Positions 797-59,620 of a stretch of DNA of 64,000 bases are shown here, one piece after another. This DNA is from a plasmid, in the sequence record NZ_CP024444.1; one strand, written 5' to 3'. A model generated the notes under the pieces. The model was given only the letters and a program-made list of their open reading frames with translations. It was not told the DNA's origin and did no database searches. The first letter of the stretch is position 1. Each line of letters starts with the position of its first letter. The position numbers and the translations under genes are program-made.

Positions 797-815
797 TAGC
801 GAATAAGAGGCTTGT
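797..815 (+). promoter_or_regulatory. Copy of the conserved upstream motif TTTTTAGCGAATAAGAGG, ending 7 nt before the ATG at 816.
   Basis: The motif is seen directly in the sequence and recurs at ten or more gene starts across the window. Confidence 0.6.
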
Positions 816-1223
816 ATGAAAATTACAGACATTAAGCAGTCTATTAACGACAAAGTTTTAGCAGCATTCGTTCTACTCCCAGCAATTATTGCCACCATGC
901 CAGCCGAGGCTAGTACCTCGCTATCAGATGCCTACAGCGCAGACAAATCTAAAGCAGGCTCATTAACATCGTCAAACGGCGGTAATGCTGACGCAGGCTT
1001 AGGTATCGTCTATAAATTACTATCAGGTGTTTTCATCCTAGTGGGCTTATGGTTCATTGGTACTGGTTTCATGAAAGTTCGTAAAGCATCAAACAGTGAA
1101 GGTCGTGAAAGCCCTACAGGTGGTTGGGTTGCCGTTGTCATTGGCGGTGCCCTAGCGACATCATCTTACATTCTTTGGACCATGTCTAAAACAGTTGAAA
1201 ACGTTACTGGTGCTAGTTCATAA
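816..1223 (+). CDS. Small membrane protein that is VirB2/TrbC pilin-like or IcmC/IcmD (DotE/DotP)-like. It is the paralog of the ORF at 1323-1712.
   Basis: It has a signal peptide, two C-terminal hydrophobic helices separated by a basic loop, and a conserved SKTVE tail. Its position is consistent with a T4SS pilin/IcmD gene. Confidence 0.5.
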   Translation: MKITDIKQSINDKVLAAFVLLPAIIATMPAEASTSLSDAYSADKSKAGSLTSSNGGNADAGLGIVYKLLSGVFILVGLWFIGTGFMKVRKASNSEGRESPTGGWVAVVIGGALATSSYILWTMSKTVENVTGASS

Positions 1224-1252
1224 GAGTAAACGGTTAACACCTTGTCAACTCA

Positions 1253-1290
1253 AAAGCATCTATTCATTAAACTGGGTAGGTGCTTTTTTT
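1253..1290 (+). terminator. Rho-independent terminator (attenuator) after the first pilin-like gene.
   Basis: The hairpin has a gcatcta/taggtgc stem followed by a run of seven T. Confidence 0.55.
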
Positions 1291-1322
1291 AATTACAACA
1301 TAGAAATCTAATACAACCTACA

Positions 1323-1712
1323 ATGGGTGTTGAAATGTCTAATCTACAACAGCTAAAAAAACTGCCTGCCACATTAATTTCATTGCTGATCCTTTTTTAT
1401 GTATCACCAACCTTTGCCGCCCTTGATGCCCTACCTGATTCGCCACACCAAGATGCAACCATTCCCAAAGTAGCAGGACATTTTGATGAAACATTGGGTA
1501 TTGCTTATAAAACCTTTACGGGTTTTGCTGTGGTGGTAGGCTTAATCTTTATTTACGTTGGACTAAGCCGACTTAAAAAAATCAATAACGATGAAATCAG
1601 TGGTAGCGTGGCATCCTGTTTTTGGATATTGGGTATCGGTGGTGCGATGGCATCCTTGGGCGTCGTTTTATTTTCTATGTCTAAAACCGTTGAGTCGGGT
1701 ACGACAGGTTAA
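1323..1712 (+). CDS. Second pilin-like or IcmD-like small membrane protein, paralogous to the ORF at 816-1223.
   Basis: It has the same architecture: a signal peptide, two transmembrane helices and an SKTVESG tail. Confidence 0.5.
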   Translation: MGVEMSNLQQLKKLPATLISLLILFYVSPTFAALDALPDSPHQDATIPKVAGHFDETLGIAYKTFTGFAVVVGLIFIYVGLSRLKKINNDEISGSVASCFWILGIGGAMASLGVVLFSMSKTVESGTTG

Positions 1713-1738
1713 CACTGCCTCGCAAGGAAAATCATATT

Positions 1739-2716
1739 ATGAGTTACCTACCACATGGATTTGGCCGCCTACAGTTAAATGTTCACCGCCCTAACTGGCG
1801 CAATGAAATCAACCTCCATCGCACGCCAAAATATCTAAGTATTCTACATTCAGCTCGCCGAAATACCGCGCAAGCCGCCTGCCACTTTTGCGGTTACCCT
1901 GACGGTGAGTTTTTAGAAATTCACCATGTCAATGGCGATCATGATGATTATTCAGACGGCAATATCAAGTATGCCTGTTCATTGTGTCATCGATTACATC
2001 ATCTAGGGTGGGCTGGTATTAAGTCAAACGGCAAGCTCATTCATTTACCATCATGGCAAACCATAGGCCAACAGGGAAAAGCGCAGCATGAAGTCCATAG
2101 CCTTGAAGTGTTTAATATCATGCAACGCTTTGTCATTATGTCTAAGTTTTTAAGTCAAGACGAGCAAGAGCGTTTTCAGGCATCCGCGCTTATGGAAAGT
2201 ATTTCATCGTTGCTTGCCTGCTTTAAGCATGTTGACTTGCAAAGTGCCTATATCGCCAATAAATATCGCATTGCAAAAATCTTGCAAAATCAGCGCGAGA
2301 TTGAAACTAAAACGCCTGAAGAAAAGGCAGCGGCACTAAAAAAACAAAAAGAAGAGCGTTTAGCTGAACAGCTGCAAGATGATAGCGATGTATTTAATAC
2401 AGAAAAGCTCAACATCATTGATTTGGTCGACGCCTTATGTCAGGTGCATCAGCATCATTTACTAACGAGCCATGACCCAAAACAACCGTCGCCAACCGAC
2501 ACCTTTTTTGCCCAACAAACCACGGGTGAGTTTGGTCGTTTAACCCTATTCTATAATGAGTCAATCTTCGAGCCATTTGAGCCAAACCCTGCTTATTCTC
2601 TCGAAGAGCGTCTGCAAAGCTATCGTGATAGCAATATGTTTACCAAAGATGGGTTAACCAAAATATTGCATGTATCAAGACAAGGTCGGCAGGCAAGTCA
2701 TCAAGCAATCAGTTAG
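1739..2716 (+). CDS. Cys/His-rich zinc-ribbon protein, possibly DotN/IcmJ-like or TraT(R64)-like.
   Basis: It contains a CxxC...HH...CxxCH cluster in CHFCGYPDGEFLEIHHVNGDHDDYSDGNIKYACSLCHRLHH. Its position, after two small membrane proteins and before the large ATPase, matches the icmC-icmD-icmJ-icmB gene order. Confidence 0.35.
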   Translation: MSYLPHGFGRLQLNVHRPNWRNEINLHRTPKYLSILHSARRNTAQAACHFCGYPDGEFLEIHHVNGDHDDYSDGNIKYACSLCHRLHHLGWAGIKSNGKLIHLPSWQTIGQQGKAQHEVHSLEVFNIMQRFVIMSKFLSQDEQERFQASALMESISSLLACFKHVDLQSAYIANKYRIAKILQNQREIETKTPEEKAAALKKQKEERLAEQLQDDSDVFNTEKLNIIDLVDALCQVHQHHLLTSHDPKQPSPTDTFFAQQTTGEFGRLTLFYNESIFEPFEPNPAYSLEERLQSYRDSNMFTKDGLTKILHVSRQGRQASHQAIS

Positions 2717-5616: not shown

Positions 5617-5643
5617 CAAAACAGGCTTAATAGCCTGTTTTTT
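5617..5643. terminator. Bidirectional rho-independent terminator between two convergent genes.
   Basis: The hairpin aaacaggct-taat-agcctgttt is followed by a run of T. Confidence 0.6.
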
Positions 5644-5669: not shown

Positions 5670-7259
5670 CTAAAATGGCGACATGGTCATTTCATTTTGT
5701 TGTGCCATCGTTGGGGCAGGGGTTGGTGGTTCAGGCTCATTGACCAAGGTGTTGCGACCTTTTGGCGAGATTAAATCCAAGTCTTCTTGCGAATAGAACT
5801 CACGAATTGGTACATAGCTAAGTTTGCCAAAATTCGCATCAAGGCTATCAAGCATGGCTTGGGTTTCAAAATTCTTCACTTGAGGGTCGTCGGTCAAGCT
5901 TACGATGGTTTGGCGTGTCGATTTGCGCCACAAGTCTTTGATACTATCATCCCCTGACGTCAACCCTTTTTCTGCAATTAACTTTTCGACCAAACCACCA
6001 GCGTTGATGCCAGGATAGTCACTGATTAATTTAAACTCATAATCATCAGATAGGGGCTTACCGCCTTGGCTTGCGGCAATTTCTTGCATAAAGTTTTCAT
6101 AAGACCCAGCGTATTTAGGCTCAAACATTTTAAATTCATTGCCATTTTTATGGTCAAGCACGGCAATTTTGGCATCTAAATCCCAAAAGATGTTACGTTT
6201 TTCGTGATTAGGATGAATGACATTGTATTCACTCAATACCTCACGGGCTTGATCGACACGCTCACTGATATCATCAAACGCATTCCACACTTGCTCGCTA
6301 TGTTCAATGCTCACTTGGTATTGCGATTTACCTGTCGTTTGACTAATGTGTTCAACTAAGTGCTTATGAAAGGTGTTATCATCAAAAGCCAGTTCTTTGG
6401 CAAAATAAGTATTTAGGTCAGCCGATGTATTAAGATTTAGCTCGCCAATCTTTACCTTGCCCAATTCATCATGGTCAACGTTCACATCAAATTGCACTTT
6501 TGGTGGGTGCGTCGCATCATTTTCATGATGACGAGTGAAGGCTGCGCTAACTTGCTGCATGCCGATAAACTGTTTGGCAAAATCTTCACCAAGTTTAGCT
6601 TTGGGGTCGCTTATGCCATCGCTAATGATTTTACTAAATTTGTCACTCACAATGTCTGCCGCTTGCTGCGCATCGATGCCATAGTCTTCAGTTTTATCCG
6701 CTAGATGACGAGCCGCGATAATCGACGTGGTAACCTCACTTTCTTCAAAATAATCACGCAACTGGCTTACCAGCTTTTCACCTTCGGCACCAGCCCCGAT
6801 TTTATCTAACGTTTCACGAATTTCTTCGCCTATATCATGGGTCGTGACTTCCCAATTACCGCCGTTATTACGAAACGTCTGCTCGATAAAGCGTCCTTCA
6901 TCAAAGTTCAGCATGTCAATCTTGGTTTCTTCAACCCCGTTAACCACCGTGCGCTTAATCTCAATCCCGTATTCTTCCAACACTTCATTAGGAATATTTT
7001 CAATGGTAATTTGCTTATCTTGGTTTGGCGTGGTGGTGGTAATTTGATTGCCATCTAAGGTGAAATGGGGGTTATTGCTGACCAAATCTGCGGTATAAAA
7101 CGCCTTATTGTCATTATTGATGACGATGACTTGGTCAGGTTCTAGGTATTTTAGGTTATCAAACGTATTGCTACTTTGCTCGGGGTCAACTTTGTAGTCT
7201 TTACCGTCTTTACCTCGGACAATATCGGCAGTTACGCCATAAGAAAAGTTTTGTGGCAT
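5670..7259 (-). CDS. Hypothetical acidic 529-aa protein. It is the only minus-strand gene that carries the TTTTTAGCGAA upstream motif.
   Basis: It is a long ORF. The reverse-complemented motif lies at 7278-7294, directly upstream of its ATG. Confidence 0.45.
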   Translation of the reverse strand: MPQNFSYGVTADIVRGKDGKDYKVDPEQSSNTFDNLKYLEPDQVIVINNDNKAFYTADLVSNNPHFTLDGNQITTTTPNQDKQITIENIPNEVLEEYGIEIKRTVVNGVEETKIDMLNFDEGRFIEQTFRNNGGNWEVTTHDIGEEIRETLDKIGAGAEGEKLVSQLRDYFEESEVTTSIIAARHLADKTEDYGIDAQQAADIVSDKFSKIISDGISDPKAKLGEDFAKQFIGMQQVSAAFTRHHENDATHPPKVQFDVNVDHDELGKVKIGELNLNTSADLNTYFAKELAFDDNTFHKHLVEHISQTTGKSQYQVSIEHSEQVWNAFDDISERVDQAREVLSEYNVIHPNHEKRNIFWDLDAKIAVLDHKNGNEFKMFEPKYAGSYENFMQEIAASQGGKPLSDDYEFKLISDYPGINAGGLVEKLIAEKGLTSGDDSIKDLWRKSTRQTIVSLTDDPQVKNFETQAMLDSLDANFGKLSYVPIREFYSQEDLDLISPKGRNTLVNEPEPPTPAPTMAQQNEMTMSPF

Positions 7260-7277
7260 GGGAATATCCTATCATGG

Positions 7278-7294
7278 TTCGCTAAAAATTAATT
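7278..7294 (-). promoter_or_regulatory. Conserved upstream motif (TTAATTTTTAGCGAACC) preceding the minus-strand gene.
   Basis: The sequence, read as a reverse complement, matches the recurring motif. Confidence 0.55.
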
Positions 7295-7349
7295 ACCCGA
7301 TAAAGGGTGATTAAATATTAGCATACTCACATGCGCTTAACTATGAAGT

Positions 7350-7757
7350 TTACAATTGGCTTATTGTCCTGGCATTCAACATTTCGCATGGATTTTTTAG
7401 GCAAGTGGGGTCGACACTATAGGCAGCATAGCTTGCTGACCAAAACACCCCTTCATCCACAGATAGCATGCCACTCGCCTCGCGTTTTAATGCCTTTGTC
7501 GATGCACTTTTGAAGCGATTGACCAGTGATGAAACACTGATAGTCGCAGGATAACGCACAATAAAATTAATGCAATGTGGCTCATACTCAAATATTATGA
7601 GCTGACCGCCGTTTAAATCGCATACCCTAAATATAGCCTCTTTGATGATAGCTTGTGTTGTATCATCAAGTTTATGGGCATCATTTAAAATATAGAACAC
7701 TAAATATGTATAAAGGTATGAAACCACGAAGCGACGGTCTTTAAATCCCCTTGACAT
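7350..7757 (-). CDS. IS200/IS605-family TnpA-like (Y1 HUH transposase) homolog with a degenerate HUH motif.
   Basis: The stretch IIFEYEPHCINFIVRYPATISVSSLVNRFKSASTKALKRE aligns to the IS200 TnpA core EVMPDHVHLLVEIPPKLSVSQFMGYLKGKSS, but the second His of HUH is replaced (HCI). A candidate catalytic Tyr is retained in WSASYAAYS. There is no adjacent tnpB. Confidence 0.45.
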   Translation of the reverse strand: MSRGFKDRRFVVSYLYTYLVFYILNDAHKLDDTTQAIIKEAIFRVCDLNGGQLIIFEYEPHCINFIVRYPATISVSSLVNRFKSASTKALKREASGMLSVDEGVFWSASYAAYSVDPTCLKNPCEMLNARTISQL

Positions 7758-7867
7758 ATCATTAGACCTATTTATAATTTGAAAGCAATGTTTATTCTAA
7801 TCTTATCATTAATACAATAAACATCCTACAAGCAAACTTGACTACGGGTGTTCACGTCAGTCATTTT

Positions 7868-7888
7868 TAATTTTTAGCGAATATTAAC
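7868..7888 (+). promoter_or_regulatory. Motif copy TAATTTTTAGCGAATATTAAC, located 155 bp upstream of the nuc-like gene.
   Basis: The sequence matches the recurring motif. Its distance to the start codon is longer than at the other sites. Confidence 0.4.
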
Positions 7889-8042
7889 TTTAGTTGGACA
7901 TTGTCAATAACTTGACAAAAATATAAGATAATTTAACACACTTGTTGATAAATACGTTAAACTGTCTTAACTAACTATATACCAATTGGTTAGCATAAAA
8001 GTTAATGTTAAGTTCTTAACCAACCACCTTATGCGAAACTTT

Positions 8043-9080: not shown

Positions 9081-9120
9081 AAAATCTGTCGTTTATCGAC
9101 AGTCTATTGTTTGAAATAGA

Positions 9121-9144
9121 AATTAATTATTAGCGAATAAGAGG
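9121..9144 (+). promoter_or_regulatory. Motif copy AATTAATTATTAGCGAATAAGAGG, ending 5 nt before the ATG at 9150.
   Basis: The sequence matches the recurring motif. Confidence 0.6.
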
Positions 9145-9149: not shown

Positions 9150-12100
9150 ATGAGCATTGTTAACAATGTACAAAATATTGTATTAAGCATCCTGCATGCG
9201 CTAAAAGCCAATGTGGAAGACTATTGCGACCTTGAAACCACCGATGGTCCTACTGAATTAGTATTTAAAAATGGCGGCATGATGACCCTTGTTCGGTACG
9301 ACGGGTTGTTATCCATGATTACCCGTGACATCTTTGATGGTATGAATGACCGTCTTACTGAAGAAATGGCACCGTTTTTAAACAAGTCAGGTCATAAAGT
9401 CTGTATGATGTTTCGACGTGACTTAGATGCCAACTCGTCGCTTCAAACCATTAATCAGCTGCAAAAGCAAACCTGTGAACGCTTGAACTTAGACTTGGGT
9501 TATCTGATTGATGAAAATACCGAAATTTACGAAAAATATATCTATGACGAAGAGTGCTACATTGCCTTAATCACCTTGCCATCCGTTTTAGATAAGGTTG
9601 AGCGTGAAAATCACGAAGAGTATTTAAAGTCGTTCATCGCGCCAGCCATGAAGGATGCGCAAAATCTATCTGCCCCCATTCCCACCTTACGTGCTCGCCA
9701 CTCTTCATTTGTTGAAAAATTCATAACCACCATCAACAACAAAGATTTCTATGTTAAAGCGGTTAAGGTCAACATCCTTGATGCCCTAGCGGTCGTGCGT
9801 CACCAAGTAGCACCAAATACCTCCGACCGTCGCTGGCGTCCGGCAGTTGCCTTAGGTGCTGCCAATGCGCGTGAATTAGGTATTAAGTATCGTACACCGC
9901 TACGTTGGCCAACCACCAGCAACTCACATGATTTTTCACACATGTTGCCGCCATCATTGCCTGAACAAATCATGTTTAATAACATTAATATTTTAGGTCC
10001 CAAAGAGGGCTTGCCACCCAATACCATTGCTACCGATGGTCGTTTGTATGCCACCACCATGATGAATATTCCGCCAACCCAACCAGCGGTATTTGAAGCC
10101 TTATTCAATAGCTTTAATGAGTCATCGTCAAAGGATAGTATGGGGCGCATTCGCTCGATGCCATACTCAATTTGTTTTATGTTGACGGGTGACGGCTACG
10201 CAGGGCATGCGGTGAAAAAAGCCTTTATGCAGTTTTTAAGCAAAGTGCCACCAAGCACCAATGAAAATTTAAAAGCAGCAACCAGTCAGCTGTTAGAATA
10301 TAAACGTGCCGATGTACCCTTGGTTGCGTTTCAGATATCAGCCATGACGTGGTGTGATGATGATGCGTTTGGACGTGAGGAAATCCGTAAACGTCGTACT
10401 CGCTTAATTCATACCTTATCTACTTGGGGTGGCATGAGCTGTGTTGAACGTGCTGGTGACCCTGTATCGATGTTTACCAGTAATATTATTGGTTTATCAG
10501 ACACTTCAATTGCACCAAAGGGTGTTGCGCCTCTACCACGCGCATTTGAAATGATGCCGTTCACCCGTCCTGCATCGCCTTTTTATAAAGGCACGGTACT
10601 GCGTCGCACCCAAGATGGTAAAGCGATGATTTTGGAACGTTTCTCGTCTGAATTAAGCACATGGATTTCGCTATATTCAGGTCGACCGGGTTCGGGCAAA
10701 TCGGTATCGCTTAACAACGACTTAACTGAAACTTGCTTTATGCCGGGTATTGAGCGACTGCCGTATATTACCGTGATTGACGTGGGTATTAGCTCGACAG
10801 GTTTTATTAATCAGCTGCGCAATGGGCTACCTAAGCACCAACGCTATCTTGCTGTCACCAAGCAATTAAGAAAGTCGCGAGAGTATGCGATCAATCCATT
10901 TGATATCAAAGTGGGCTTAACCCGTCCGCTTGAAACCGAAAAAAACCAAATGGCCAGTTTCTTAACCTCGCTATTAACCCCTAAAGAAAAACGTGAACCT
11001 TATAACGGCACTTATAACTTCGTCCTGTACCTTATCACTGAAGTATTTGAGTCAGTAAATGAAGGGGAAGAGAAGGGGTCATCGAAAATCTATCGATACG
11101 GTTATGCCCCTGAATTGGATGATTACTTAATCAATAACAACATCATTCGCTTTGGTACTAAACAAGTGGCTGACGGGTTTGGTGGTCTTAAAAAAATTAT
11201 TGACGGCGATGACATTGAATCGGTCAGTTATTATGAATTAACCCGACGCTTACATGTGATTGGTACTAAATTTGGTGGTGATGAACGCGCATTGGCTTGG
11301 CGTGCTCGTGACTTGGCGCATCGAAACGCAATGCCAACCCTAGATGACATTGTTAAGGTGTTAAATAAACCTGAAACCACCAAACGCTATAAAAACAAAA
11401 TCGAAACTGAAGAAACCATTGTTGAATACGCCTCGCGTGTTATCAATGAGGTAATTAATAACTACCCATGTTTTGCCAATACGACACGTTTTGATGTCGA
11501 CACAGCTCGCGTGGTCGCGCTTGACTTAAACGATGTGGTGGACGTAAATAACCCACAGCAAACCTCGTTGTTTTATCAAATCGCCCGTATGGTGGGGGTA
11601 AAAAAAATCTCACTAACCGAGCAGGATATTGAGTCTGAAGCCATCCCTGACTTGTTTAAACCGTATTACCGTGACCTGTTCCGTGAAATCTCACAGGACC
11701 GCAAAATCCTTGCTATGGATGAAATGCATAACTTGCAGGGTGAGCCTGTCCTCATGGCGCAGCTTGAGAAAGACTGCCGTGAGGGTCGTAAATGGGGACT
11801 TGAAGTTATTTTGGCGTCCCAACGTTTAATCGACTTTAAACGCATTGTCGGCTACGCAACCACGTTAAACATCTGTAGTGAGCCAGCTGGTGAGGACTTA
11901 GCATTACTGCGTGAAAACTTCCGTATCAACGACACCATGGTAGACCAACTGTCACGCATTTCATTGGGTCGTGAAGGCTTAAGTTATTTCTCTTACATCG
12001 TCGGTAAAACCGATATTTATTGTTCAATGCTTACCATGACGGTAGGTCCAAAACGCTTATGGTCGCTGACCACCGATGCTGATGACCGTATTTTACGTCA

Positions 12101-12359
12101 GTATATGTTTGATATCGCTGGCGACAGAAAAACCGCGATCAATGCACTGGCGTTTCGGTTCCCGGGTGGTGCTCGTAACGCCATTAGTGACCTACGTGAG
12201 CAAGTTAAGCTTAAAAGCTCTGACCTATCTGAAGTTGAAATGGAAAAAGAGGCTGGCAACTTGATTGAGAACTTGGCTCGCGAAACGTTGTCGATGTGGG
12301 ACCAATTCCAATTAAATATACAAGCCGACGAACAAAGCGGCTTGTTAGCGTTCGCATAA
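9150..12359 (+). CDS. Large T4SS ATPase of the VirB4/TraC superfamily. Its size and N-terminus suggest the IcmB/DotO/TraU (type IVB) branch.
   Basis: It has a Walker A motif YSGRPGSGKS and a Walker B-like LAMDEMHNL. At 1069 aa it matches DotO/TraU-sized proteins rather than VirB4 proteins of about 800 aa. The N-terminal EDYCDLETTDG is recalled, uncertainly, as IcmB-like. Confidence 0.65.
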   Translation: MSIVNNVQNIVLSILHALKANVEDYCDLETTDGPTELVFKNGGMMTLVRYDGLLSMITRDIFDGMNDRLTEEMAPFLNKSGHKVCMMFRRDLDANSSLQTINQLQKQTCERLNLDLGYLIDENTEIYEKYIYDEECYIALITLPSVLDKVERENHEEYLKSFIAPAMKDAQNLSAPIPTLRARHSSFVEKFITTINNKDFYVKAVKVNILDALAVVRHQVAPNTSDRRWRPAVALGAANARELGIKYRTPLRWPTTSNSHDFSHMLPPSLPEQIMFNNINILGPKEGLPPNTIATDGRLYATTMMNIPPTQPAVFEALFNSFNESSSKDSMGRIRSMPYSICFMLTGDGYAGHAVKKAFMQFLSKVPPSTNENLKAATSQLLEYKRADVPLVAFQISAMTWCDDDAFGREEIRKRRTRLIHTLSTWGGMSCVERAGDPVSMFTSNIIGLSDTSIAPKGVAPLPRAFEMMPFTRPASPFYKGTVLRRTQDGKAMILERFSSELSTWISLYSGRPGSGKSVSLNNDLTETCFMPGIERLPYITVIDVGISSTGFINQLRNGLPKHQRYLAVTKQLRKSREYAINPFDIKVGLTRPLETEKNQMASFLTSLLTPKEKREPYNGTYNFVLYLITEVFESVNEGEEKGSSKIYRYGYAPELDDYLINNNIIRFGTKQVADGFGGLKKIIDGDDIESVSYYELTRRLHVIGTKFGGDERALAWRARDLAHRNAMPTLDDIVKVLNKPETTKRYKNKIETEETIVEYASRVINEVINNYPCFANTTRFDVDTARVVALDLNDVVDVNNPQQTSLFYQIARMVGVKKISLTEQDIESEAIPDLFKPYYRDLFREISQDRKILAMDEMHNLQGEPVLMAQLEKDCREGRKWGLEVILASQRLIDFKRIVGYATTLNICSEPAGEDLALLRENFRINDTMVDQLSRISLGREGLSYFSYIVGKTDIYCSMLTMTVGPKRLWSLTTDADDRILRQYMFDIAGDRKTAINALAFRFPGGARNAISDLREQVKLKSSDLSEVEMEKEAGNLIENLARETLSMWDQFQLNIQADEQSGLLAFA

Positions 12360-12371: not shown

Positions 12372-15317
12372 ATGCCAGCGTATCAGGGTAATCAATTAAA
12401 ATATAAGCCAACCGAACAGCGTGCTGAAACCAAACGATGGTCAGTACGCATGGCGGAATACTGGAAAACCTCTGAAGGGGCGACTTTCCTAGCAGGGACT
12501 TTGTCGGTTATCGGACTGGTTTCATCATTTTTCCCATTAGGGGGTATTCTAGCTTATCTACCGCTGCGTATCTTATCTCGCAATTTTTTATACCCTGAAC
12601 GCAATTTGCATGATATGCCTATTCGGGTACCAAAATACTTGGGGCTGCCCGATGGCTCTATCGATGCAACCGCCCGAGGTATTAACCCTAAAACCCAACC
12701 TGACAAGCTACTAGGTCAAGGCGTCACCTATCTTGGGATTGACCGCCAAACAGGTCGCCAAACCTATATTAGTAACTCGGACGTGCGCACCCACATGACC
12801 ATCATTGGGACCACAGGTTCGGGTAAAACTGAATTTATTTTTAGCTTGATTGATAACCAGCTTATTCAAAATAGTGGCTTTATCTTCGTCGATGCCAAAG
12901 GCGACATCAATTCACAGCGTACCGTCTGTGCGATGTTGCGTCGCTATATGCGTGAAGATGACATGCTGTCTATTTCATTTGGTGCGTTCGGGCGTAACTT
13001 TATGGAAGCCCAGCTTGATAAGCCAACCAATACCATGAATATCATGGCAAGTACCAGTGATGGTATGCTAATTGAGCTGTTGGCTGGCATGTTAGATAGC
13101 GGTGGAGGTTCATCTGACCTGTGGGTGGGTCGTGCAGTTGCTTTTGTGGGTGCGCTGACAAGACCACTGGTGTTCTTGCGTGACCGTGGCGAAATTAACC
13201 TGTCACCAAGCACGTATATTGAATACATGGAATTAAGCGAAATTGAACGCTTGGTATTTGAGCGCAATAACGATTATCCTGGCTTTGATGAAGTGTTGGC
13301 ACCGCTACGTTCTTACCTTATCACCTTGCCAGGTTATAGCATGGCCAAACGTGCCAAGGGTGAGGCACAAGACCAAAAAACCAATGAGCAGTTTGGTTAT
13401 ATCACCATGCAGCTAACCCGTGCAATCAATGACTTGTCCTACACCTATGGGCATATTTTTGGGGTCGAGCAAGGGGATGTGGATGTCGTCGATGTTATTT
13501 TAAACCGTCGCTGTTTAACCATCTTATTACCAGCCCTAGAACGTTCGATTGACTCATTGAATATGCTAGGTAAGCTCATTATCGGTAGTATCAAGCAAAT
13601 GATGGCAGGCTCGCTTGGTAATAAAATGGAAGGCTTGATCCGTGTGACCGTTGACTCACGCCCAACCACCGCAAATGACGCCTTTCAAATCATCCTAGAT
13701 GAAGTTGGGTACATGATGGTTCGCGGCATGTCAATTATTCCGGCACAAGCTCGCGCATTGAATATTGGCATGGTGTTTGCGTCACAATCGTACACCGATT
13801 TAAAACGTGGGTCAGCAGAAGAGGCTGAAGCGATTTGGGCAAATACCACCATTAAGGTCGTGGGTCGTTTAACTGAATCTGAAGACGATGAAACCATTCG
13901 TAAAGTTAAAGGTGTCGCTGGTCAATACGAACAGATGGTAACCAATAGCTATGACTATCAAGGTACCGATGTTGGCTATCAATACAACCCATCGCAATCC
14001 GTTCACCGCGAAATGCGCTCGCAAATCAATATGCAAGACTTGGGTGGTCAGCAAGACGGTGAATTCCATGTGGTGATTGGTAAGAAATTTAATGGTGGCA
14101 AATCACAAGGTTTAGCGGTTGTCCGTATTCTAGGTTTCTATATGGGCAAGATTGCTGAAGGCTCTCACATGTACCTAAATGACCTCGCGCCAGCACCCAT
14201 GCCCGATAAACGTAAATTTTTACATCTAAAAGAAGTCACCCAGCAATTACAAAGTGTGATTGAAAAACAGCAGTTAAGCCATGAGCTCAACAACAATATT
14301 AGCCAAACTGCCTCTATCCAAAAAACCCAAACCAATCGCTTAAGAAGTGAGCGAACGCCAGTTGGAACCGATAAAAACAATATTATTTTATTCCTGCGCC
14401 ATGCCAAACAAGAGATTATGGCGCATGCTGACGACTATGGTAGTCGCGCCTTGGTGACCGAGTTAACCCTTAATCGCTTGTCTGAAAGCTTGCAATCAGT
14501 GTTTAATAGCGAAGTGGTATTGCCTGTTAACCGCTTACGCAACGGCTCTATCAATCCAATGCAAGATGACGACGTCACAGGCTTTGTGGTGAGTCATGCC
14601 CCTGACATGCTGGATAGCAACTTGGTGACGGCAATGTCTGCCAATTTTGCGCAAACAGGCTACACCTTTGACCGCAGCTCGCATGAAGCAACCTTGCGCC
14701 ATCACTATGAGCTTGCTGAACAGCTACGCCAAGACGCTGAATTGGCGCGTTTAGAATCCGTGTATGCCGATAGTGATTTCCTTTGGGAAAGCCGTAAAAA
14801 TCAGCATTTTGATAGCATGTACCTAAACAATCATGGCGCATTGCCAAGCGATGCCTCGAACACGCCTGAAATGCAGGCATTGTCCCAGCAATTTGAAGAA
14901 AGACAGCTGCTACAACCACTGGCAATGACGGTGTTGTTTAATAACCATGAGATTAATGCCGCCATGAGCAATCCTGAACAGCTGCCAGCGGATGTTGACC
15001 CAACGTGGTTGTTAAATGCCAATGCCATTAAAGATGCTGACCAGTTGCGTAAAAAAATCCAGCAATACCTTGCCTTGCATCACACCCAAAACGAGGCGAT
15101 TGCTACCGAACATCAAATGCTATGTTTCTCAAACCGCTTAAGTGCCTCTATTGCTACCCAAAATGAAGCATTAGACAACCTTGGTAAAAACCGTCCTGTA
15201 TCGCCAAGCCGTTTCTTTGAAGATATGTCAGATAACAACTTACAAGAAACCTTTAAACGACTACGAAACAATGCATTGGTCGCACAGCAACAGCCAAAAA
15301 AAGATGACAGCCAATAA
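12372..15317 (+). CDS. Type IV coupling protein of the VirD4/TraD/DotL family.
   Basis: It has an N-terminal transmembrane segment followed by Walker A IIGTTGSGKTEF and an FIFVDAKGD motif typical of T4CPs. A long C-terminal extension is also present. Confidence 0.7.
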   Translation: MPAYQGNQLKYKPTEQRAETKRWSVRMAEYWKTSEGATFLAGTLSVIGLVSSFFPLGGILAYLPLRILSRNFLYPERNLHDMPIRVPKYLGLPDGSIDATARGINPKTQPDKLLGQGVTYLGIDRQTGRQTYISNSDVRTHMTIIGTTGSGKTEFIFSLIDNQLIQNSGFIFVDAKGDINSQRTVCAMLRRYMREDDMLSISFGAFGRNFMEAQLDKPTNTMNIMASTSDGMLIELLAGMLDSGGGSSDLWVGRAVAFVGALTRPLVFLRDRGEINLSPSTYIEYMELSEIERLVFERNNDYPGFDEVLAPLRSYLITLPGYSMAKRAKGEAQDQKTNEQFGYITMQLTRAINDLSYTYGHIFGVEQGDVDVVDVILNRRCLTILLPALERSIDSLNMLGKLIIGSIKQMMAGSLGNKMEGLIRVTVDSRPTTANDAFQIILDEVGYMMVRGMSIIPAQARALNIGMVFASQSYTDLKRGSAEEAEAIWANTTIKVVGRLTESEDDETIRKVKGVAGQYEQMVTNSYDYQGTDVGYQYNPSQSVHREMRSQINMQDLGGQQDGEFHVVIGKKFNGGKSQGLAVVRILGFYMGKIAEGSHMYLNDLAPAPMPDKRKFLHLKEVTQQLQSVIEKQQLSHELNNNISQTASIQKTQTNRLRSERTPVGTDKNNIILFLRHAKQEIMAHADDYGSRALVTELTLNRLSESLQSVFNSEVVLPVNRLRNGSINPMQDDDVTGFVVSHAPDMLDSNLVTAMSANFAQTGYTFDRSSHEATLRHHYELAEQLRQDAELARLESVYADSDFLWESRKNQHFDSMYLNNHGALPSDASNTPEMQALSQQFEERQLLQPLAMTVLFNNHEINAAMSNPEQLPADVDPTWLLNANAIKDADQLRKKIQQYLALHHTQNEAIATEHQMLCFSNRLSASIATQNEALDNLGKNRPVSPSRFFEDMSDNNLQETFKRLRNNALVAQQQPKKDDSQ

Positions 15318-15330
15318 AGTGAGCAACGCT

Positions 15331-15660
15331 ATGAATAATAATCAACTTATGGATGATGATAATTTAGATGACGAATTCTTGCCATCCCCGTTATACGATA
15401 GTATGAAAACCCATCAAAGCTTTGAACACCTATTGGATAATGCCAAGTCGGTATTAAATACTCGTGCAGACTTTCCATTTTCTAGTATGCATAAACAAAC
15501 ATTAAAAAAATTGGAAAAAGTTGATAAAGCCTTTTTAAAACAAGTGACATTAGCTTTATCAACAGATGATGTAAAAAAGGATCAGTTATTAGCCAGTAAA
15601 CTAGAACAGATTACCCAATATCTGTTAGAAAGATTTGACTTCCTCCCCTCCCTAAAGTGA
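15331..15660 (+). CDS. Hypothetical acidic protein. It is probably the 5' portion of a gene split by the tnpB element. An alternative start lies at 15304.
   Basis: The ORF's last codons run into the IS right-end hairpin. The tracked ORF start at 15181 lies inside the upstream gene and was rejected. Confidence 0.35.
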   Translation: MNNNQLMDDDNLDDEFLPSPLYDSMKTHQSFEHLLDNAKSVLNTRADFPFSSMHKQTLKKLEKVDKAFLKQVTLALSTDDVKKDQLLASKLEQITQYLLERFDFLPSLK

Positions 15661-16890
15661 GGGGATTCCTTCTACAAGACGGTCAAGCCCGACCGCAAGA
15701 ATGTTCTTAGCAGCATTGATATCTCTATCATGCCATGTGCCACACGTTGCACAAGTCCATTCTCTTATCCCAAGCGATTTTCTACCTTTCGGACTGTTGT
15801 CGGTAATATCACCGCAACACGAACATCGTTGGGTCGTGTATTTTTCATTCACGATTTCAAAACGGCAACCTGCGTTCTCGCATTTGTAGGTCAGTTGTCG
15901 TTTCATTTCAAACCAACCTGCATCGTAAACCGATTTAGCCAGTTTGCCTTTTTTACTATTAAATTGATTACTCTGAATATCACCGACCACGATTAGGGCA
16001 TTGTCCTTGACTAATTGGGTGGTAAATTTATGGATTAAGTCTTGGCGTGTGTTTTTGATTTTGGCATGGATCGCTTTGACACGCTGTTTGTTTTTGGCAC
16101 GTTGGGCGGTGGCTAAATCTTTGGCATATTTGAGCGTTTGTTTGATTTGTAATTTATTGCCATTTGAGGCGGTGGCACTGTCTTTTAAGCCTAAGTCAAT
16201 GCCTACGCTACCCGTTCCGCATTGTGTCTTGGGGTATTCTTTGACGGTAATACAGGCATACCAACGGTTACGGCTGTCTTGCACGATTTCTAGTGTGTTG
16301 ATTTGATACAGCGATAGATTGTAGCTGTCCCATAGGTCGATGGTTAGCTTTTGCCCTTTGGCTAGACTTAGTTGCAGAGTTGATTTTAAGCCCTTTTTGC
16401 CTGTTTGGTGGGTGGCAATATGCTTAATAGCCGATTGTTTAAATGGTAGCCAACCAAGCGATTTACGCTTAGAATTTGGGTTGTTGGTTCGCCAGTTAAG
16501 TTTGGATTTTTTGAATTGTTTACGGCTTTTGGCGTGGGTTTCGCTGATAGCTTGAATAGTTTGTGAGTGCAAGCCCAGTAACTCACCGCTACCTTTGGTG
16601 TAGTCGTTTAGGTCATAAGCACTAAAGAATTTGCCAGTTTTTTGTAGGTGTCTGTAACTCAAATCATTGACATAATTCCACACGAAATTGACCGAACCGC
16701 TTAGGCGGTTTAGTTGGTCTGTGTGTTTATCTCGTATGCGTAGCTTGAGTGTTTTCATCGGAATTAGTGTGGCAAGTTATGTTTGAGGTTTCAAGGTGCT
16801 AGGTTGGCTATACGTCATTATGCGTCGTGTTGTTTGCCTTATATCCACCGCCTAAATGCGGTGGTTTTACGGCAAGGGGTGATAAAAACG
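15630..16890 (-). mobile_element. IS605-family element of the IS1341 type carrying tnpB only, with subterminal hairpins at both ends. Boundaries are approximate.
   Basis: The tnpB ORF lies between the hairpins ccaccgc-CTAAAT-gcggtgg (16845-16864) and cccctc-CCTAAAGT-gagggg (15645-15664). No TnpA is adjacent. Confidence 0.6.
15652..16758 (-). CDS. tnpB: TnpB, an RNA-guided RuvC-like endonuclease of the IS200/IS605 OrfB family.
   Basis: It shows RuvC-I GIDLG, a zinc finger CSCCG...CATCG, and RuvC-III RDINAAKNI. At 368 aa its length is typical. Confidence 0.8.
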   Translation of the reverse strand: MKTLKLRIRDKHTDQLNRLSGSVNFVWNYVNDLSYRHLQKTGKFFSAYDLNDYTKGSGELLGLHSQTIQAISETHAKSRKQFKKSKLNWRTNNPNSKRKSLGWLPFKQSAIKHIATHQTGKKGLKSTLQLSLAKGQKLTIDLWDSYNLSLYQINTLEIVQDSRNRWYACITVKEYPKTQCGTGSVGIDLGLKDSATASNGNKLQIKQTLKYAKDLATAQRAKNKQRVKAIHAKIKNTRQDLIHKFTTQLVKDNALIVVGDIQSNQFNSKKGKLAKSVYDAGWFEMKRQLTYKCENAGCRFEIVNEKYTTQRCSCCGDITDNSPKGRKSLGIREWTCATCGTWHDRDINAAKNILAVGLDRLVEGIPSL

Positions 16891-17402
16891 CTTTACTAAA
16901 TACCGAGCTTAAGCATATTACCAGCTACCCACACTTAGGTTACCATCTATTTTTGTTAAAAGATCAACACCTAGTTGCTTATTACGAAGACACAGCTTTG
17001 ATTTCTACCTGTCAGATTTACGTTGATGATGCAGATTTGGGCACTTGGATGTATGTGAATTATTTGCTTGAAAAAATTATCTATTTTGACGTATATAGAA
17101 CCAGCCTTGATAAGCTTACAGTAGGTAGCGTCCTTATTAATCAACCCAAAGATAAAGCATATTCGTTACAAGCATTTAAAGTGGTAGCCAAAAACACCAT
17201 ACCACTGACAGATACTTATGCTATGCTGAACAATACAGTTCTGACACTCGCGCCCATTATGCGTTTAAACAATGCAATAGACCCAAATAAAGTTATTGGT
17301 TGGAATGTATTAGCACTTCCAGGTTATGATAATGATAAGGGTCAGTTGTCCGTTACCATCCCGGCACTAGAGCATGAAGTTGGCACTTTTTACATTAAAT
17401 AA
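16827..17402 (+). CDS. Hypothetical protein. Its 5' end overlaps the IS left end, so it may be the 3' portion of the gene split by the tnpB element.
   Basis: The ORF begins inside the IS left-end hairpin region, and no canonical start or RBS precedes the internal Met at 17052. Confidence 0.3.
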   Translation: MLFALYPPPKCGGFTARGDKNALLNTELKHITSYPHLGYHLFLLKDQHLVAYYEDTALISTCQIYVDDADLGTWMYVNYLLEKIIYFDVYRTSLDKLTVGSVLINQPKDKAYSLQAFKVVAKNTIPLTDTYAMLNNTVLTLAPIMRLNNAIDPNKVIGWNVLALPGYDNDKGQLSVTIPALEHEVGTFYIK

Positions 17403-17549
17403 TTCGTAGGTTTAAAACGCTTTAGTTTTACCTATCGCTTTAGCAAGGGGAGGATTTCGAGTTGAATAATAGATTTGATATATTATTTGTTATCTTTGAT
17501 AGGCTCTGATATATTACGTTCAAATTAACTTATTTTATAGATAATACAC

Positions 17550-17969
17550 ATGTTTGAACTTGAAATGATTGGAAAACGGCTTGAAAATGAGCGAAAACGG
17601 CTGGGAATGAAGGCGGTTGAGGTTTACAAAAGCCTTGATATTGCTCAAACCACTTATAAAAGTTATGAAACTGGCAAACGCAATATTCCTGCCAGCTTAC
17701 TTACAAAACTATGGGATATAGGTTTTGATATATTGTATATTGTAACAGGAGTATACACCGAATCAGCGAACAGTAATCAGGTAATCAGGCAAAATCGGTT
17801 AGTAAATTTACCGGATAATACTGACACGCATGTCTTGTCAGACAGTCTATTAATATATATGCACCAGGCAGAAGAAGCACTGATTCAAGCTGGTGCAGAA
17901 GCCGCCAAACACTATAGTTATAAGGATTTGTTAATAGCTGCAAGTGTTATACAACAGAAAAAGGGCTAA
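17550..17969 (+). CDS. XRE/Cro-C1-type helix-turn-helix transcriptional regulator.
   Basis: The stretch LGMKAVEVYKSLDIAQTTYKSYETGKRNIPASLLTKL fits the classic XRE HTH pattern. Confidence 0.6.
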   Translation: MFELEMIGKRLENERKRLGMKAVEVYKSLDIAQTTYKSYETGKRNIPASLLTKLWDIGFDILYIVTGVYTESANSNQVIRQNRLVNLPDNTDTHVLSDSLLIYMHQAEEALIQAGAEAAKHYSYKDLLIAASVIQQKKG

Positions 17970-18288
17970 AACTTTATTGTTATTAATAAAGCTTAAGGAT
18001 GTTAAAAATAATGAAACAAAAAAATTAATGTCAGTGCAATTATTGTTGCCTAGATTTAATGATGGCAACTCTGGAGTGGGAACCATGCTCTTTAGGGCAT
18101 GGAGGAAACGTCATGTTGTTTAATTTTTCTATCTAGCTATTCATCATAATTATAGTGAAACCCTGATAATTAAGACTTTCCTGCAATTCTTGATTAATCA
18201 GTGATTTAAACGACAAAAAAATGTACTAAAACTACAAAATTTTGTTAAAATTGATAAAAGTTTACTAACTGACTTGGTAAACATTAAG

Positions 18289-18309
18289 TTATAGCGAATA
18301 AAATACAGG
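18289..18309 (+). promoter_or_regulatory. Motif copy TTATAGCGAATAAAATACAGG, located 8 nt before the ATG at 18317.
   Basis: The sequence matches the recurring motif. Confidence 0.55.
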
Positions 18310-57256: not shown

Positions 57257-57265
57257 TTATTTGGT

Positions 57266-58060
57266 CTAGACATTGGGGAGTACCTTATTCTTGGCAATCC
57301 AAAGACCGAGCAATTCTTTACGCCCTTCAGTATTAATGCCAAGCGCAAGGTAAACACATTTATTATGAGCAATACCTTCTTCTCGATTTTTAACCACCAA
57401 TCCGTCAAGATAGACGACAGGGTAAATCGGTTCAAGTGGACGCTGTTGCCATTGTTTGACTTCATCCAGTACGCTGTCGGTGACGGTGGAGATAAAGGTA
57501 GATGAAACGTCAACGCCATAGATTTCTTTTAAATGCGCTTGAATGTCACGGGTGCTCATGCCTCGGGAATATAGGGAGATGACCTTATCATCAAAGCCGT
57601 TTAGGGTGCGTTCATGCTTTTTAACAAATTGTGGCTCGAAGCTGCCTGCTCGATCCCTTGGTACGTCAAGTTCTATTTTACCAAAGTCAGTACGGATGGT
57701 TTTTTTAGTGGTGCCGTTACGGGCATTGCTATTCTTACGAGCGGGTTTGCCTGCAAGTGATACGGTTTCTTCGCTTATGGTACTAGGCTGGATAGTTTCT
57801 TCTTCAGCTGATGGCTGTTCGTCCTCAAGCCAATCATTTTTAGGTTCATGATTGATGAAGTCATCAAGCGTTTCTTTATTAGCTTTGCTTTGGTAGTCGT
57901 GTTTGGCGTAGCCAAGATGATGGGTCATTTCGGCTTGTAAGGCTCGTTCGGCAAGTCGTTTAGTGAGTTGTTTTAAGATACCGTTTTCACCCAAGATTTG
58001 TTCGGGTGTTTGGTAGTCTTTTAAGAGTTCGTCAAGCAAAACTTCTGTTGATTCTTTCAT
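57266..58060 (-). pseudogene. IS256-family transposase, N-terminal fragment.
   Basis: It ends ...LGLWIAKN and is then read through into the IS3 end, giving KVLPNV*. Confidence 0.8.
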
Positions 58061-58153
58061 GTAAATATTCCTGTGTAAGTCCTGGTGTTAAAATTGGGTT
58101 TACACAAAATATTTTACAGTCTCCAATCGCCTAAAATAATTAGCCTTAAATAT

Positions 58154-58184
58154 AAAAACCCAATTTCATATTGGGTTTTTTTTT
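58154..58184 (+). terminator. Rho-independent terminator-like hairpin.
   Basis: The hairpin aaaaacccaat-ttcat-attgggttttttttt was read from the sequence. Confidence 0.45.
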
Positions 58185-58321
58185 GGGGAAATTTAATCAG
58201 TATTTACATCATGCCGTGCGCAAAATATGACAGCATCGGACAATGTAGGATAAAATAATATTTTGTCGGAAAAACTGAAATATCGTGCTTTTTATATAGT
58301 ATAATTTCTTTAAGTAGTATA

Positions 58322-59575
58322 GAGACCTTTGCACGAAACAGCCCCTTTGCTCGAGGCATACCACCAAACCGAAAAAAAACAAAGAATGGCAATGAAATAA
58401 GCAAAACAATGGCTAAATCATGGATAAAATCTCCAAATGGTTGTTAAATTTGTGTCTATTGGCTGAGCTTACTAACCAACAGACACAATAACCCTAGGCG
58501 AGTCCGTATTTTCGTTTCAAGCTTAGGGCAGTTTTTAAATTATGCACCATGCTTGCAAGCAAAGTGCTGGTATGAAATTGCATTAACCCTAAATGACGAG
58601 CTTTGCTCATCCCATAATGCAGTTTAAAATGTCCAAAGACCCGCTCAACGGTGTTTCTAGTTTGGCTCTTTTGGGTATTATTGCGTTTTTGCTGTTCGGT
58701 TAAGGGTGTATTGCGCCATGCTCTATCATGAATATGATTTTTTATCGGTGGTTCATGCTCGGCAAGGTAGTCATCATGGGCTTGGCTTTTATACGCACTG
58801 TCAGCATACACGGCTGATTCATCATCTGTTAACAGCATGGTAAAACATTGGGAATCATGGACATTGGCAGGGGTAGTTTCAACCTTTTTGACAAAGCTGT
58901 CTTCATCACAGTTGAGATGAATTTTAAAGCCGTAGGTGGTTTTTACTTTACCTGTACTGTCTTTTTTACTGACATAGGCGGCTTCGTTATCTTGGGTATT
59001 GTCGGTGTGTTTGCCTTTCTTAGGTCGTTTGTTTTTAGCTTCAACGATACTGGCATCGATGATGCTGACATTGCCCGCTTTGATAAAAATGTTTTGTTGG
59101 GCTAGTTGCTCATTGATTTGGTTGAACAATGGTTCAATCAGTCTAAGCTCACCTAGGTGTTTGTGGTATCGCCAAATGGTGCTATGGTCGGGTACATCAT
59201 CCGTTAATGATAGGCCAACAAAGCGACGAAATAGTAAGTCTCGTGCCAGTTGTTTTTCCATGGCTGGATCCGATAGGTTATAGAGTTTTTGTAAGAGTAA
59301 TACTTTAAACATGATGACAGGGTGAAAGGCAGATTCCCCACGCTCACTGCTATGAACGTGGCGTAAGGTTTGCTCGATAGTTTGCCAGTCAATTAGGTTG
59401 TGTAGTTCATCTAATTCTTCGATGGCTTTGTGAGCGTTAATGAGACTGTCTGCTAGGGAGAGTTGCCCTGTTTGTTTCCATGCCATAGTCGTGTCTTTTG
59501 CTAGGTGATTGATTTTATTGTATTATACCAATTTAATGAACTTTTGTGTGTTTATTCGTGCAAAGGTTTCGTATA
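58322..59575 (-). mobile_element. IS5-family (IS5 group) insertion sequence of about 1.25 kb with an intact transposase gene at 58494-59486.
   Basis: It has inverted repeats ACCTTTGCACGAA at both ends. The transposase has an IS5 DDE core (about 330 aa). Confidence 0.7.
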
Positions 59576-59594
59576 TTTTTTATGCTACTTATCT

Positions 59595-59620
59595 TAATTA
59601 ATTTATAGCGAATAAATAGG
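59595..59620 (+). promoter_or_regulatory. Motif copy TTAATTAATTTATAGCGAATAAATAGG before the ATG at 59629.
   Basis: The sequence matches the recurring motif on the far side of the IS insertions. Confidence 0.6.

Follow-up and report, generated by a model that had tools for sequence, protein, structure and literature searches.

The 64,000-nt stretch of plasmid DNA analysed here (sequence record NZ_CP024444.1; below, the window) carries backbone genes of a Moraxella osloensis plasmid in which a short, oriented sequence, here called the box, precedes the start codons of many genes. Window positions 1-30476 and 59571-62126 are 97-99.6% identical to positions 82920-111855 and 114559-117132 of M. 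osloensis pMOXF1 (CP040258.1, 248,441 bp), and two differences separate the sequences: a TnpB-type insertion sequence (IS) at 15635-16881 and a 29-kb cargo/IS segment at 30477-59570. The window's proteins also have database entries derived from a 271,709-bp M. osloensis replicon, and many metagenome contigs with at least 98% identity encode them too. Judged from its genes, the backbone encodes conjugation machinery of type IVB (Dot/Icm, IncI-like) in a highly divergent form, with a DotL-like coupling protein (12372-15317), a 1069-aa IcmB/DotO-like ATPase (9150-12359) and further DsbC-like, M23 peptidase and SNase-like genes. DotM_C and T4SS_TraI domains are encoded elsewhere on pMOXF1, outside the window, and most of the large backbone proteins have no match in Pfam.

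A repeated box oriented toward gene starts

The sequence logo of 26 copies defines the box as an asymmetric, sharply bounded unit of 18 nt, TTAA-(T/G)T(T/A)T-TAGCGAA-TAA, holding about 27 bits of information. Positions 2-4 (TAA) and 9-15 (TAGCGAA) are invariant or almost so, positions 16-18 are moderately conserved, and positions 5-8 form a loose W-rich spacer with mostly T against A or G. Each of the positions from -25 to -1 upstream of the box carries 0.0-0.2 bits, so that no -35-like sequence is conserved, and the base directly 3' of the box is not conserved either. The box contains a stop codon in each frame (TAA at 2-4, TAG at 9-11 and TAA at 16-18). A preliminary description of this DNA had proposed a motif followed after 5-12 nt by AGAGG. 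The motif is real and extends by 3 nt to the final TAA, but AGAGG is not a fixed part of it: the string occurs in only three window copies, starting 2 nt after GCGAA, while the others carry, at a distance of 4-12 nt, Shine-Dalgarno (SD)-like strings of other sequence, and no such string follows some of the pMOXF1 copies.

The number of copies is far above chance, and all ten that had been listed are present. The 15-mer TTAATTTTTAGCGAA has 16 window matches at up to three mismatches, compared with 6.25 +/- 2.4 in dinucleotide shuffles, none of which (0/100) reached 16. An 18-nt position weight matrix (PWM) found nine window sites of at least 12 bits and none in five block shuffles, to which one degenerate copy of 9.2 bits is added. 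The low-scoring hits at 20359, 24811, 29682, 34536, 53397 and 61148 were discarded as chance matches with no link to gene starts, the one at 34536 lying inside an open reading frame (ORF). The whole pMOXF1 sequence, assembled from five pieces and then scanned, holds about 33 copies, of which the plus strand has 24 and the minus strand 9 (28 matches with no more than two mismatches; 34 PWM sites of at least 12 bits, compared with 1-3 in shuffles).

In about 30 of the 33 pMOXF1 copies GCGAA ends 4-20 nt 5' of a start codon, and the box invariably points the same way as the gene that begins there. In the window the distance is 12-18 nt in nine of the ten copies, and all ten, the minus-strand one included, point toward the downstream gene, which bears out the fixed orientation described before. 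The exceptions to start proximity are pMOXF1 66332, where an IS cuts the gene, the window copy at 7867 and pMOXF1 177065. Proximity is kept even where the intergenic gap measures 186-347 nt. Boxes precede 8 of the 14 genes with gaps of 60-120 nt and 9 of the 27 with gaps of 120-400 nt (17/41 together), compared with 1 of the 32 with gaps below 25 nt. Many copies lie within co-directional gene arrays in gaps too short for a further promoter (40 nt at 27270, 69 nt at 9123), and at pMOXF1 133753 positions 2-4 of the box are the stop codon of the preceding gene. In one of two spacing classes, the AUG lies 10-20 nt away and an SD string stands between it and the box; in the other, there is no SD and the AUG lies 4-7 nt past GCGAA (pMOXF1 36283, 71930 and 76853). 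A role as the 3'-end signal of the preceding gene was rejected, because the preceding stop codon may be anywhere between 7 and about 350 nt away and because, for some copies, the preceding gene is divergent.

The genes behind the box on pMOXF1 include topA, a ParM-like gene, a UvrD-type helicase, a DotM-like gene and many orphans. They form a co-marked set, as the earlier term "transfer regulon" implied, but that term is too narrow, since topA, the ParM-like gene, the helicase and orphans are marked as well. The box marks about one backbone gene in three on a Dot/Icm-type conjugative megaplasmid of 248-272 kb.

Within the plasmid and mobile DNA scanned, the box is also specific to this backbone, as the preliminary description had supposed. 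Its strong copies are confined to 35-202 kb of pMOXF1, and no site of 16 bits or more was found in the 29-kb insertion, in about 113 kb of pMOXF1 cargo together with a distinct array at 203-246 kb, or in 190 kb of other DNA; all of these gave only a few weak hits of 10-16 bits. The 190 kb comprise Moraxella-associated contigs that share an IS with the window, the DotL regions of plasmids from M. bovis and A. pittii, and a syntenic but distant relative. The DotL plasmids of M. bovis and A. pittii showed neither the box nor an alternative shared motif. The syntenic relative (L133), with the same gene order and proteins about 28% identical, likewise has no box and no substitute motif, and an apparent AATTTTTAGCAAA in it is merely the end of an upstream gene. 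The suggested scan of the replicon and related elements gives about 33 copies on pMOXF1 and none that is strong in its cargo or in the distant relative and DotL plasmids covered. A PLSDB BLAST of the box returned several places on pMOXF1 only, at a low sensitivity that recovered 6 of the roughly 33 copies. The 35 IMG/VR hits were all singletons, and no phage lineage carried the box more than once. The GTDB scan for TTAATTWWTAGCGAATAA gave at least 120 stretches; among the matches listed, lone chance hits scattered over unrelated phyla made up nearly everything, and the sole multi-copy locus was a Peptococcaceae tandem repeat. Rfam had no match at the gathering score in the whole window, and the only literature matches to the box sequence were unrelated primers.

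Comparison of related sequences indicates that the box is under selection. Five haplotypes that differ by about 1% agree at every box position (4-7 sites), whereas their flanks vary. One contig of 90% nucleotide identity (L134; dS 0.31-0.33) covers two boxes and keeps both, with a single change at the degenerate position 7 of box 7292. In the same contig the hairpin before box 7292 keeps its stem, while its loop, its flank and the 2-nt linker have changed, and identity is about 96% over all 280 nt of the divergent control region that surrounds box 7867, far above that at synonymous sites. The depth of this comparison is one lineage at 90% identity together with near-identical variants.

Hairpins, promoters and the individual copies

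Next to the box we found a predicted hairpin that the preliminary description had overlooked; the upstream promoters and the gap classes are likewise new features. Hairpins of 4-12 bp lie 0-3 nt 5' of the box in about 22 of 31 copies, in the constant order hairpin, box, SD, and their sequences are unrelated between copies. Folding of the 45 nt upstream of the box gave a mean z of -2.07 (20/31 below -1.5), compared with -0.67 (9/34) for backbone genes without a box. Many stems are AT-rich, and only two of the ten window copies (768-788 and 27253-27270) passed a terminator scan. The clear bidirectional terminators at the operon ends (5618-5641 and 30384-30413) look unlike the box hairpins. A mini-hairpin within the box, UUA-GCGAA-UAA, was rejected for lack of covariation (A10 is unchanged when T16 becomes C), and a fourU-type pairing of the box with the SD was rejected on the variable position of the SD. 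Hairpins of unrelated sequence, and a neighbouring Y1-like protein without HUH histidines and catalytic tyrosine, also speak against REP/RAYT elements or IS200/IS605 ends.

Sigma70-like promoters lie 7-90 nt 5' of several boxes (7867, 22700 and 26165), and an extended -10 precedes boxes 789, 18284 and pMOXF1 156835. A promoter matching at least 10 of 12 consensus positions within 100 nt upstream occurs in 3/10 window copies, compared with about 0.16 by our own estimate from the same scans. Because of these promoters, the box is probably transcribed. The box itself is not a sigma70 -35/-10 promoter: as noted before, it lies too near the start codons and has no conservation upstream. The promoter scan never placed a hexamer pair on it, with the sole exception of CTGACA-17-AATAAT ending at 26165, which overlaps it by one base. 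Resemblances to sigma54 and sigma28 promoters, the PmrA/OmpR direct repeat, boxA, IHF and H-NS sites and pdif were considered and dropped on spacing or missing core bases.

In what follows, features lie on the plus strand unless stated otherwise, mismatches are counted against the 15-mer, bits come from the 18-nt PWM, and distances to start codons are measured from GCGAA where it is named. The first copy, ATAATTTTTAGCGAATAA (789-806; 15-mer 789-803, one mismatch; 26.0 bits), has its GCGAA 12 nt before the ATG at 816 of a 135-aa orphan. The hairpin 2 nt upstream of it (760-786) passes the terminator-like scan if the T-run of the box is counted as its tail, and the extended -10-like TGgTATTAT (719-727; pMOXF1 83637-83645) lies about 60 nt 5' of the box. 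The only minus-strand copy in the window, TTAATTTTTAGCGAACCA (7275-7292; 15-mer 7278-7292, no mismatch; 25.9 bits), has GCGAA 18 nt before the ATG at 7259 of a 529-aa orphan (5670-7259), and a small hairpin on the same strand (7295-7308) lies 2 nt from position 7292 of the box.

The distal copy announced in the preliminary description is present as TTAATTTTTAGCGAATAT (7867-7884; 15-mer 7867-7881, no mismatch), 104-152 nt before the SNase-like gene (7986/8034-9080). Its extension ATATTAAC has only one other carrier, pMOXF1 177065, and the two sites have the extension GCGAATATTAAC in common and nothing else. A perfect sigma70 consensus, TTGACA-16-TATAAT (7751-7778), has its second hexamer about 89 nt before this box. 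On the minus strand, a sigma70-like TTGACA-16-AATATT (7880-7907; 10/12) overlaps the box with its -10 and faces a TnpA-like ORF (7757-7350).

The IcmB/DotO-like gene (ATG 9150, 1069 aa) follows the box TTAATTATTAGCGAATAA (9123-9140; 15-mer 9123-9137, one mismatch; 28.4 bits), whose GCGAA lies 12 nt before it in the 69-nt gap. Two adjacent hairpins (9086-9102 and 9103-9120) precede this copy, the second one 2 nt 5' of it. The box TTAAGTTATAGCGAATAA (18284-18301; 15-mer 18284-18298, two mismatches; 25.9 bits) has GCGAA 18 nt before the ATG at 18317 of a 113-aa gene, with a hairpin (18260-18282) 1 nt upstream and the extended -10-like TGtTAAAAT at 18243-18251 before it. At the M23 peptidase gene (707 aa), which starts with GTG at 22727, GCGAA of the box TTAATTCTTAGCGAACTA (22700-22717; 15-mer 22700-22714, one mismatch; 24.0 bits) lies 12 nt before the start. 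The hairpin 1 nt 5' of this box (22674-22698) carries a C/T polymorphism among the haplotypes, the one stem change seen in them, which turns a G-C pair into G-U, and the box lies at about +63 of a sigma70-like GTGGCA-17-TATAAT (22602-22630). The box TTAATTTTTAGCGAACAA (26165-26182; 15-mer 26165-26179, no mismatch; 27.6 bits), with GCGAA 15 nt before the ATG at 26195, lies at about +7 of TTGACA-17-TACTAT (26123-26151).

In the 40-nt gap before the ATG at 27303 stands TTAATTTTTAGCGAATTA (27270-27287; 15-mer 27270-27284, no mismatch; 28.0 bits), GCGAA 18 nt from the start of a 351-aa protein that one source names SLT domain-containing. The hairpin abutting this box (27254-27269), in which the upstream gene has its stop codon, was classed by the scan as terminator-like. 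The degenerate copy CTAACTTTTAGCAAATAT (29693-29710; 15-mer 29693-29707, three mismatches; 9.2 bits) lies 16 nt before the ATG at 29724. Beyond the insertion, TTAATTTATAGCGAATAA (59598-59615; 15-mer 59598-59612, one mismatch; 27.4 bits) lies 16 nt before the ATG at 59629 of a 75-aa protein with a weak RelB/ribbon-helix-helix (RHH)-like match. The homology with pMOXF1 restarts at 59571, 27 nt 5' of this box, and the left arm of the hairpin of pMOXF1 is lost there. That the RHH/HNH block at 59629 belongs to the same backbone was predicted correctly: in pMOXF1 it follows the homologue of 29724 after 2.7 kb, and 30477-59570 is inserted cargo and IS.

Several observations concern the replicon rather than the box. 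The 29-kb segment holds IS elements (relatives of IS3, IS5 and IS256) and cargo in place of a 2.7-kb gene of pMOXF1 for a YadA-like trimeric autotransporter (adhesin). The IS200/IS605-type TnpB element at 15635-16881 splits a gene that is intact in pMOXF1 (274 aa, 98252-99076) and leaves the ORF fragments 15181-15660 and 16827-17402. MOB-suite/PLSDB types pMOXF1 as "non-mobilizable" despite its DotL-, DotM-, IcmB- and TraI(T4SS)-like proteins; its transfer system is too divergent for current typing. A relaxase was not identified in the analysis of pMOXF1. Short contigs (230-700 bp) deposited as "Mycobacterium tuberculosis" or "Pasteurella multocida" encode fragments of plasmid proteins (clusters of the window genes 26195, 9150, 5670 and 22727) and are most likely contamination by M. 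osloensis plasmid DNA. pMOXF1 itself derives from a culture contaminant. Plasmids of this family are common in M. osloensis, whether it comes from skin or occurs as a laboratory contaminant, and pMOXF1 carries resistance to macrolides and metals.

A second, unrelated repeat family was found on pMOXF1 at 203-246 kb, outside the window (loci L005 and L004). It numbers 26-30 copies, contains GAGCCTATCTCGTTTCCAT and the near-palindromes CGGTTTTAGCGT and CGGTTTAACCGT, and precedes each small minus-strand gene there (ssb, DUF1738/ArdC-like and pentapeptide-repeat genes). The region looks like a leading-region array with single-strand-promoter-like hairpins, which suggests that the plasmid has two gene sets, each with an upstream cassette of its own.

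What might read the box

The reading we favour, tentatively and at a probability of about 0.4, takes the box as an operator or enhancer that acts at the mRNA level near start codons and is read by an element-specific factor. The box would be a cis control element of the plasmid backbone, acting within the mRNA once sigma70-dependent initiation has taken place. In favour of this reading are the start-proximal position and the orientation, kept even in long gaps, the constant order of hairpin, box and SD, the promoter-like sequences upstream, the many intercistronic copies, the conservation of the box among haplotypes and in L134, and the G-C to G-U change in one stem. The proposed cassette would run from a host sigma70 promoter or an upstream cistron through a variable hairpin and a single-stranded UUAA-WWWW-UAGCGAA-UAA to an SD, or none, and the AUG. 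Because the box lies within the roughly 20 nt 5' of the start codon that the 30S subunit covers, its reader would set the translation initiation, and probably the mRNA fate, of some 33 backbone cistrons jointly, including the Dot/Icm-like transfer genes, topA, the parM-like gene and the helicase. The reader would most likely be a sequence-specific factor encoded by one of the many orphan genes of the plasmid. As for the direction of its effect, the copies without an SD hint at a positive, SD-replacing role. Such a box would imply a central switch for transfer and maintenance, which current annotation misses because most box genes are orphans. The analogy with CsrA-like regulators drawn in the preliminary description fails because there is no GGA in the 18-nt consensus.

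Several points weigh against this reading. No RNA-binding protein or antisense RNA was found, and in the PWM scan of the window and pMOXF1 no copy lay in reverse orientation, as a source of anti-box RNA would have to. Predicted pairing probabilities average 0.43-0.54 over the box, not much below those of its surroundings, and leave no clear single-stranded window. The promoter calls upstream of the boxes are consensus matches. The two copies at 7867 and pMOXF1 177065 are not start-proximal, and the former, overlapping the -10 of a divergent promoter, looks like an operator. The exchange of T for A or G at positions 5-8 and the spacing of the invariant blocks by one helical turn would suit a DNA-binding protein equally well. 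Finally, the copies without an SD (pMOXF1 36283, 71930 and 76853) could be explained more simply as leaderless mRNAs from a promoter in the box.

This last point leads to the foremost rival, the "compact promoter" of the preliminary description, which we retain as an alternative and consider unlikely. An element-encoded sigma-like factor or RNA polymerase would read the box and start near its 3' end, giving leaders of 0-20 nt, and the hairpin with the T-run of the box would terminate incoming transcription and insulate each unit, as a terminator/promoter junction like those of T4-type phages. A sharply bounded block of about 27 bits without a -35 agrees with such a promoter, as do the fit into 40-nt gaps and the hairpin 0-3 nt before the T-rich 5' half, where two of ten window copies pass the terminator scan. 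It would also give the best account of the split between copies with and without an SD, as short-leader and leaderless mRNAs, and in our own informal comparison the length and layout of the box appear superimposable on the -17 to +1 region of a T7-type promoter. However, Pfam searches of 30 large or backbone proteins and two PDB sequence searches detected no polymerase or sigma domain, and a regular-expression search of the large orphans detected no DxDxD signature. Sigma70-like promoters just upstream, one of them perfect, would be pointless if their transcripts then terminated, many copies lie within co-directional arrays, the base after the box is not conserved, and most hairpins are AT-rich rather than canonical terminators of the kind seen at 5618-5641 and 30384-30413. 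The fuller version, in which the plasmid owns a transcription system, with the box as its promoter, a sigma-like factor or RNA polymerase unrecognised among the orphans, hairpin-insulated units and very short or leaderless mRNAs, seems slightly less likely still. If true, it would place the plasmid beside T7-like phages, giant viruses and yeast linear plasmids, and be unprecedented for a bacterial conjugative plasmid.

A rather improbable alternative is a stoperator-like DNA operator. A plasmid repressor, for instance a two-domain helix-turn-helix (HTH) monomer, would bind the asymmetric box as DNA and block initiation at copies that overlap a promoter and elongation at the intergenic ones, so that the costly backbone stays silent until induced. 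About 33 asymmetric sites whose orientation is tied to transcription, in short intergenic spaces and each built of two invariant blocks that a W spacer sets about one helical turn apart, fit the published description of L5-type operators and stoperators (PMC9283540). Some sites lie at promoters, such as box 7867 over the -10 of 7907-7880 and box 26165 at about +7 of 26123-26151, and the backbone encodes DNA-binding regulators (XRE at 17550 and an Arc-family protein at 61373), while RNA-binding and sigma domains are not detectable. A roadblock, however, would need neither a distance of at most 20 nt from the start in gaps of 186-347 nt nor a fixed order of hairpin and box, and the predicted distance from transcription start to box ranges from +7 to +89. 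Nor is the XRE regulator, of which only the HTH part matches solved structures, an obvious box binder, since its promoter has its own unrelated repeat. The XRE/RstR-like gene (17550-17969) has the exact direct repeat TGATATATTA twice in its promoter region (17476-17485 and 17507-17516), and because no other exact copy exists in the window or pMOXF1, the repeat is probably the regulator's own operator.

Least probable is a factor-independent initiation cassette or processing site, with an insulating hairpin and the AU-rich box as an S1/30S standby or RNase E site, three-frame stops that end upstream translation, and copies kept alike by gene conversion or serving as recombination joints between modules. 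The stops in all frames within 18 nt (chance about 0.03 at 70% A+T by our own estimate), the AU-rich 5' half, the copies without an SD and the one module swap between the window and pMOXF1 with its right junction 27 nt before box 59598 speak for it, but S1 or RNase E needs no invariant TAGCGAA, and reading by host ribosomes predicts the box elsewhere in Moraxella DNA, where the scanned mobile DNA, insertion and cargo hold no strong sites.

Among the genes next to boxes, the TnpA-like ORF at 7350-7757 (minus strand, 135 aa) has an IS200-type Y1 transposase fold (PF01797, E 3.6e-11) that has lost its HUH histidines (PDHIH to PHCIN) and the catalytic tyrosine. It lies outside any recognisable IS, and comparison with an 86%-identical relative shows purifying selection (dN/dS 0.23). 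Its product may be a domesticated hairpin-binding protein, and as its predicted promoter overlaps a box, one could speculate that it reads the hairpin-plus-box module. The 529-aa gene (5670-7259, minus strand; dN/dS 0.10) directly follows it in an IS608-like tnpA-tnpB layout. We considered the 529-aa protein as a TnpB/IscB-like RNA-guided candidate, and no guide-like box copy was found downstream of its gene. It is a true orphan, for which a search of 1.84 billion representative proteins brought up, besides the protein, no more than a piece of it and a single weak match (E 4e-4), and its single-sequence AlphaFold model is unusable (pLDDT 36.6). A JGI metagenome scan for relatives of a 355-aa protein found none. 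Distant relatives of gene 26195 (L133 10001 and L128 2317) have upstream an extended -10 promoter, TGCTACAAT, then a strong hairpin with a T-run abutting the ATG, and no SD, and a leader hairpin with a U-tract directly 5' of the start codon may thus be older than the box.

Comparison with known repeat systems

Plasmid-wide repeated operators that co-ordinate transfer, maintenance and replication genes are known from the KorA/KorB system of IncP-1 plasmids, where they are palindromes that are not known to be oriented or start-codon-proximal. The half-site TTTAGC resembles positions 7-12 of the box. pMOXF1 has no palindromic version of the box and no TTAGCGAA...TTCGCTAA pair, only one unrelated TTAGCGGCTAA at 24972. 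In phage T4, one element-encoded protein, RegA, recognises AU-rich sequences at the ribosome-binding sites of many of the phage's own mRNAs. Unlike the box, the RegA sites overlap the AUG, are far more degenerate and have no known hairpin partner.

The stoperators of Cluster A mycobacteriophages (L5 gp71; TipsytheTRex repressor structure, PMC9283540) share with the box more than 20 asymmetric sites at promoters and in short intergenic spaces, with an orientation that tracks transcription, and a bipartite asymmetric box would fit a two-domain monomer. They are not described as start-codon-proximal or linked to hairpins, however, and no homologue of the stoperator domain was found here. The PeSLs of T4-like phages, composite terminator/promoter motifs (PMC2839356, PMC4122927), likewise combine a stem-loop with a short conserved sequence between genes in many repeats, and they sit at the joints of swapped modules, one such joint adjoining box 59598. 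Their promoter part is a sigma70-type early promoter, whereas the box has no -35/-10 layout and its hairpins are mostly weak terminators.

The nearest described phenomenon is the start-associated sequence (SAS) of Cluster K mycobacteriophages, of 13 bp and with 11-19 copies per genome (PMC3203893), whose function has been open since 2011 (PMC3203893) and was still untested in 2025 (PMC12699233). Both SAS and the box are short, asymmetric and element-specific, lie a few nucleotides 5' of start codons in one orientation, are confined to part of the genome and stand mostly before genes with gaps above 50 bp, and about half of the SAS copies have an inverted repeat just upstream. The sequences are unrelated: SAS, GGGATAGGAGCCC, contains the SD core and lies 3-7 bp before the start codon, whereas the box lies 5' of the SD or replaces it. 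The extended SAS (ESAS) repeats have a conserved sequence and no RNA pairing, while the box hairpins vary in sequence and do pair, and the hosts are an actinobacteriophage in one case and a Gram-negative conjugative plasmid in the other. By these comparisons of sequence and layout, the box is an analogue of SAS/ESAS and not a member.

The box is thus outside all these families and belongs to a general kind, the element-specific oriented repeat at gene starts, of which it is, within our searches and to our knowledge, the first in a conjugative plasmid. In practice, it is a marker that separates this backbone from its cargo and a candidate portable part for expression control. The box is separable from the SD and has a clear hairpin partner, and this Gram-negative plasmid would offer an independent system for finding the reader of such start-associated sequences.

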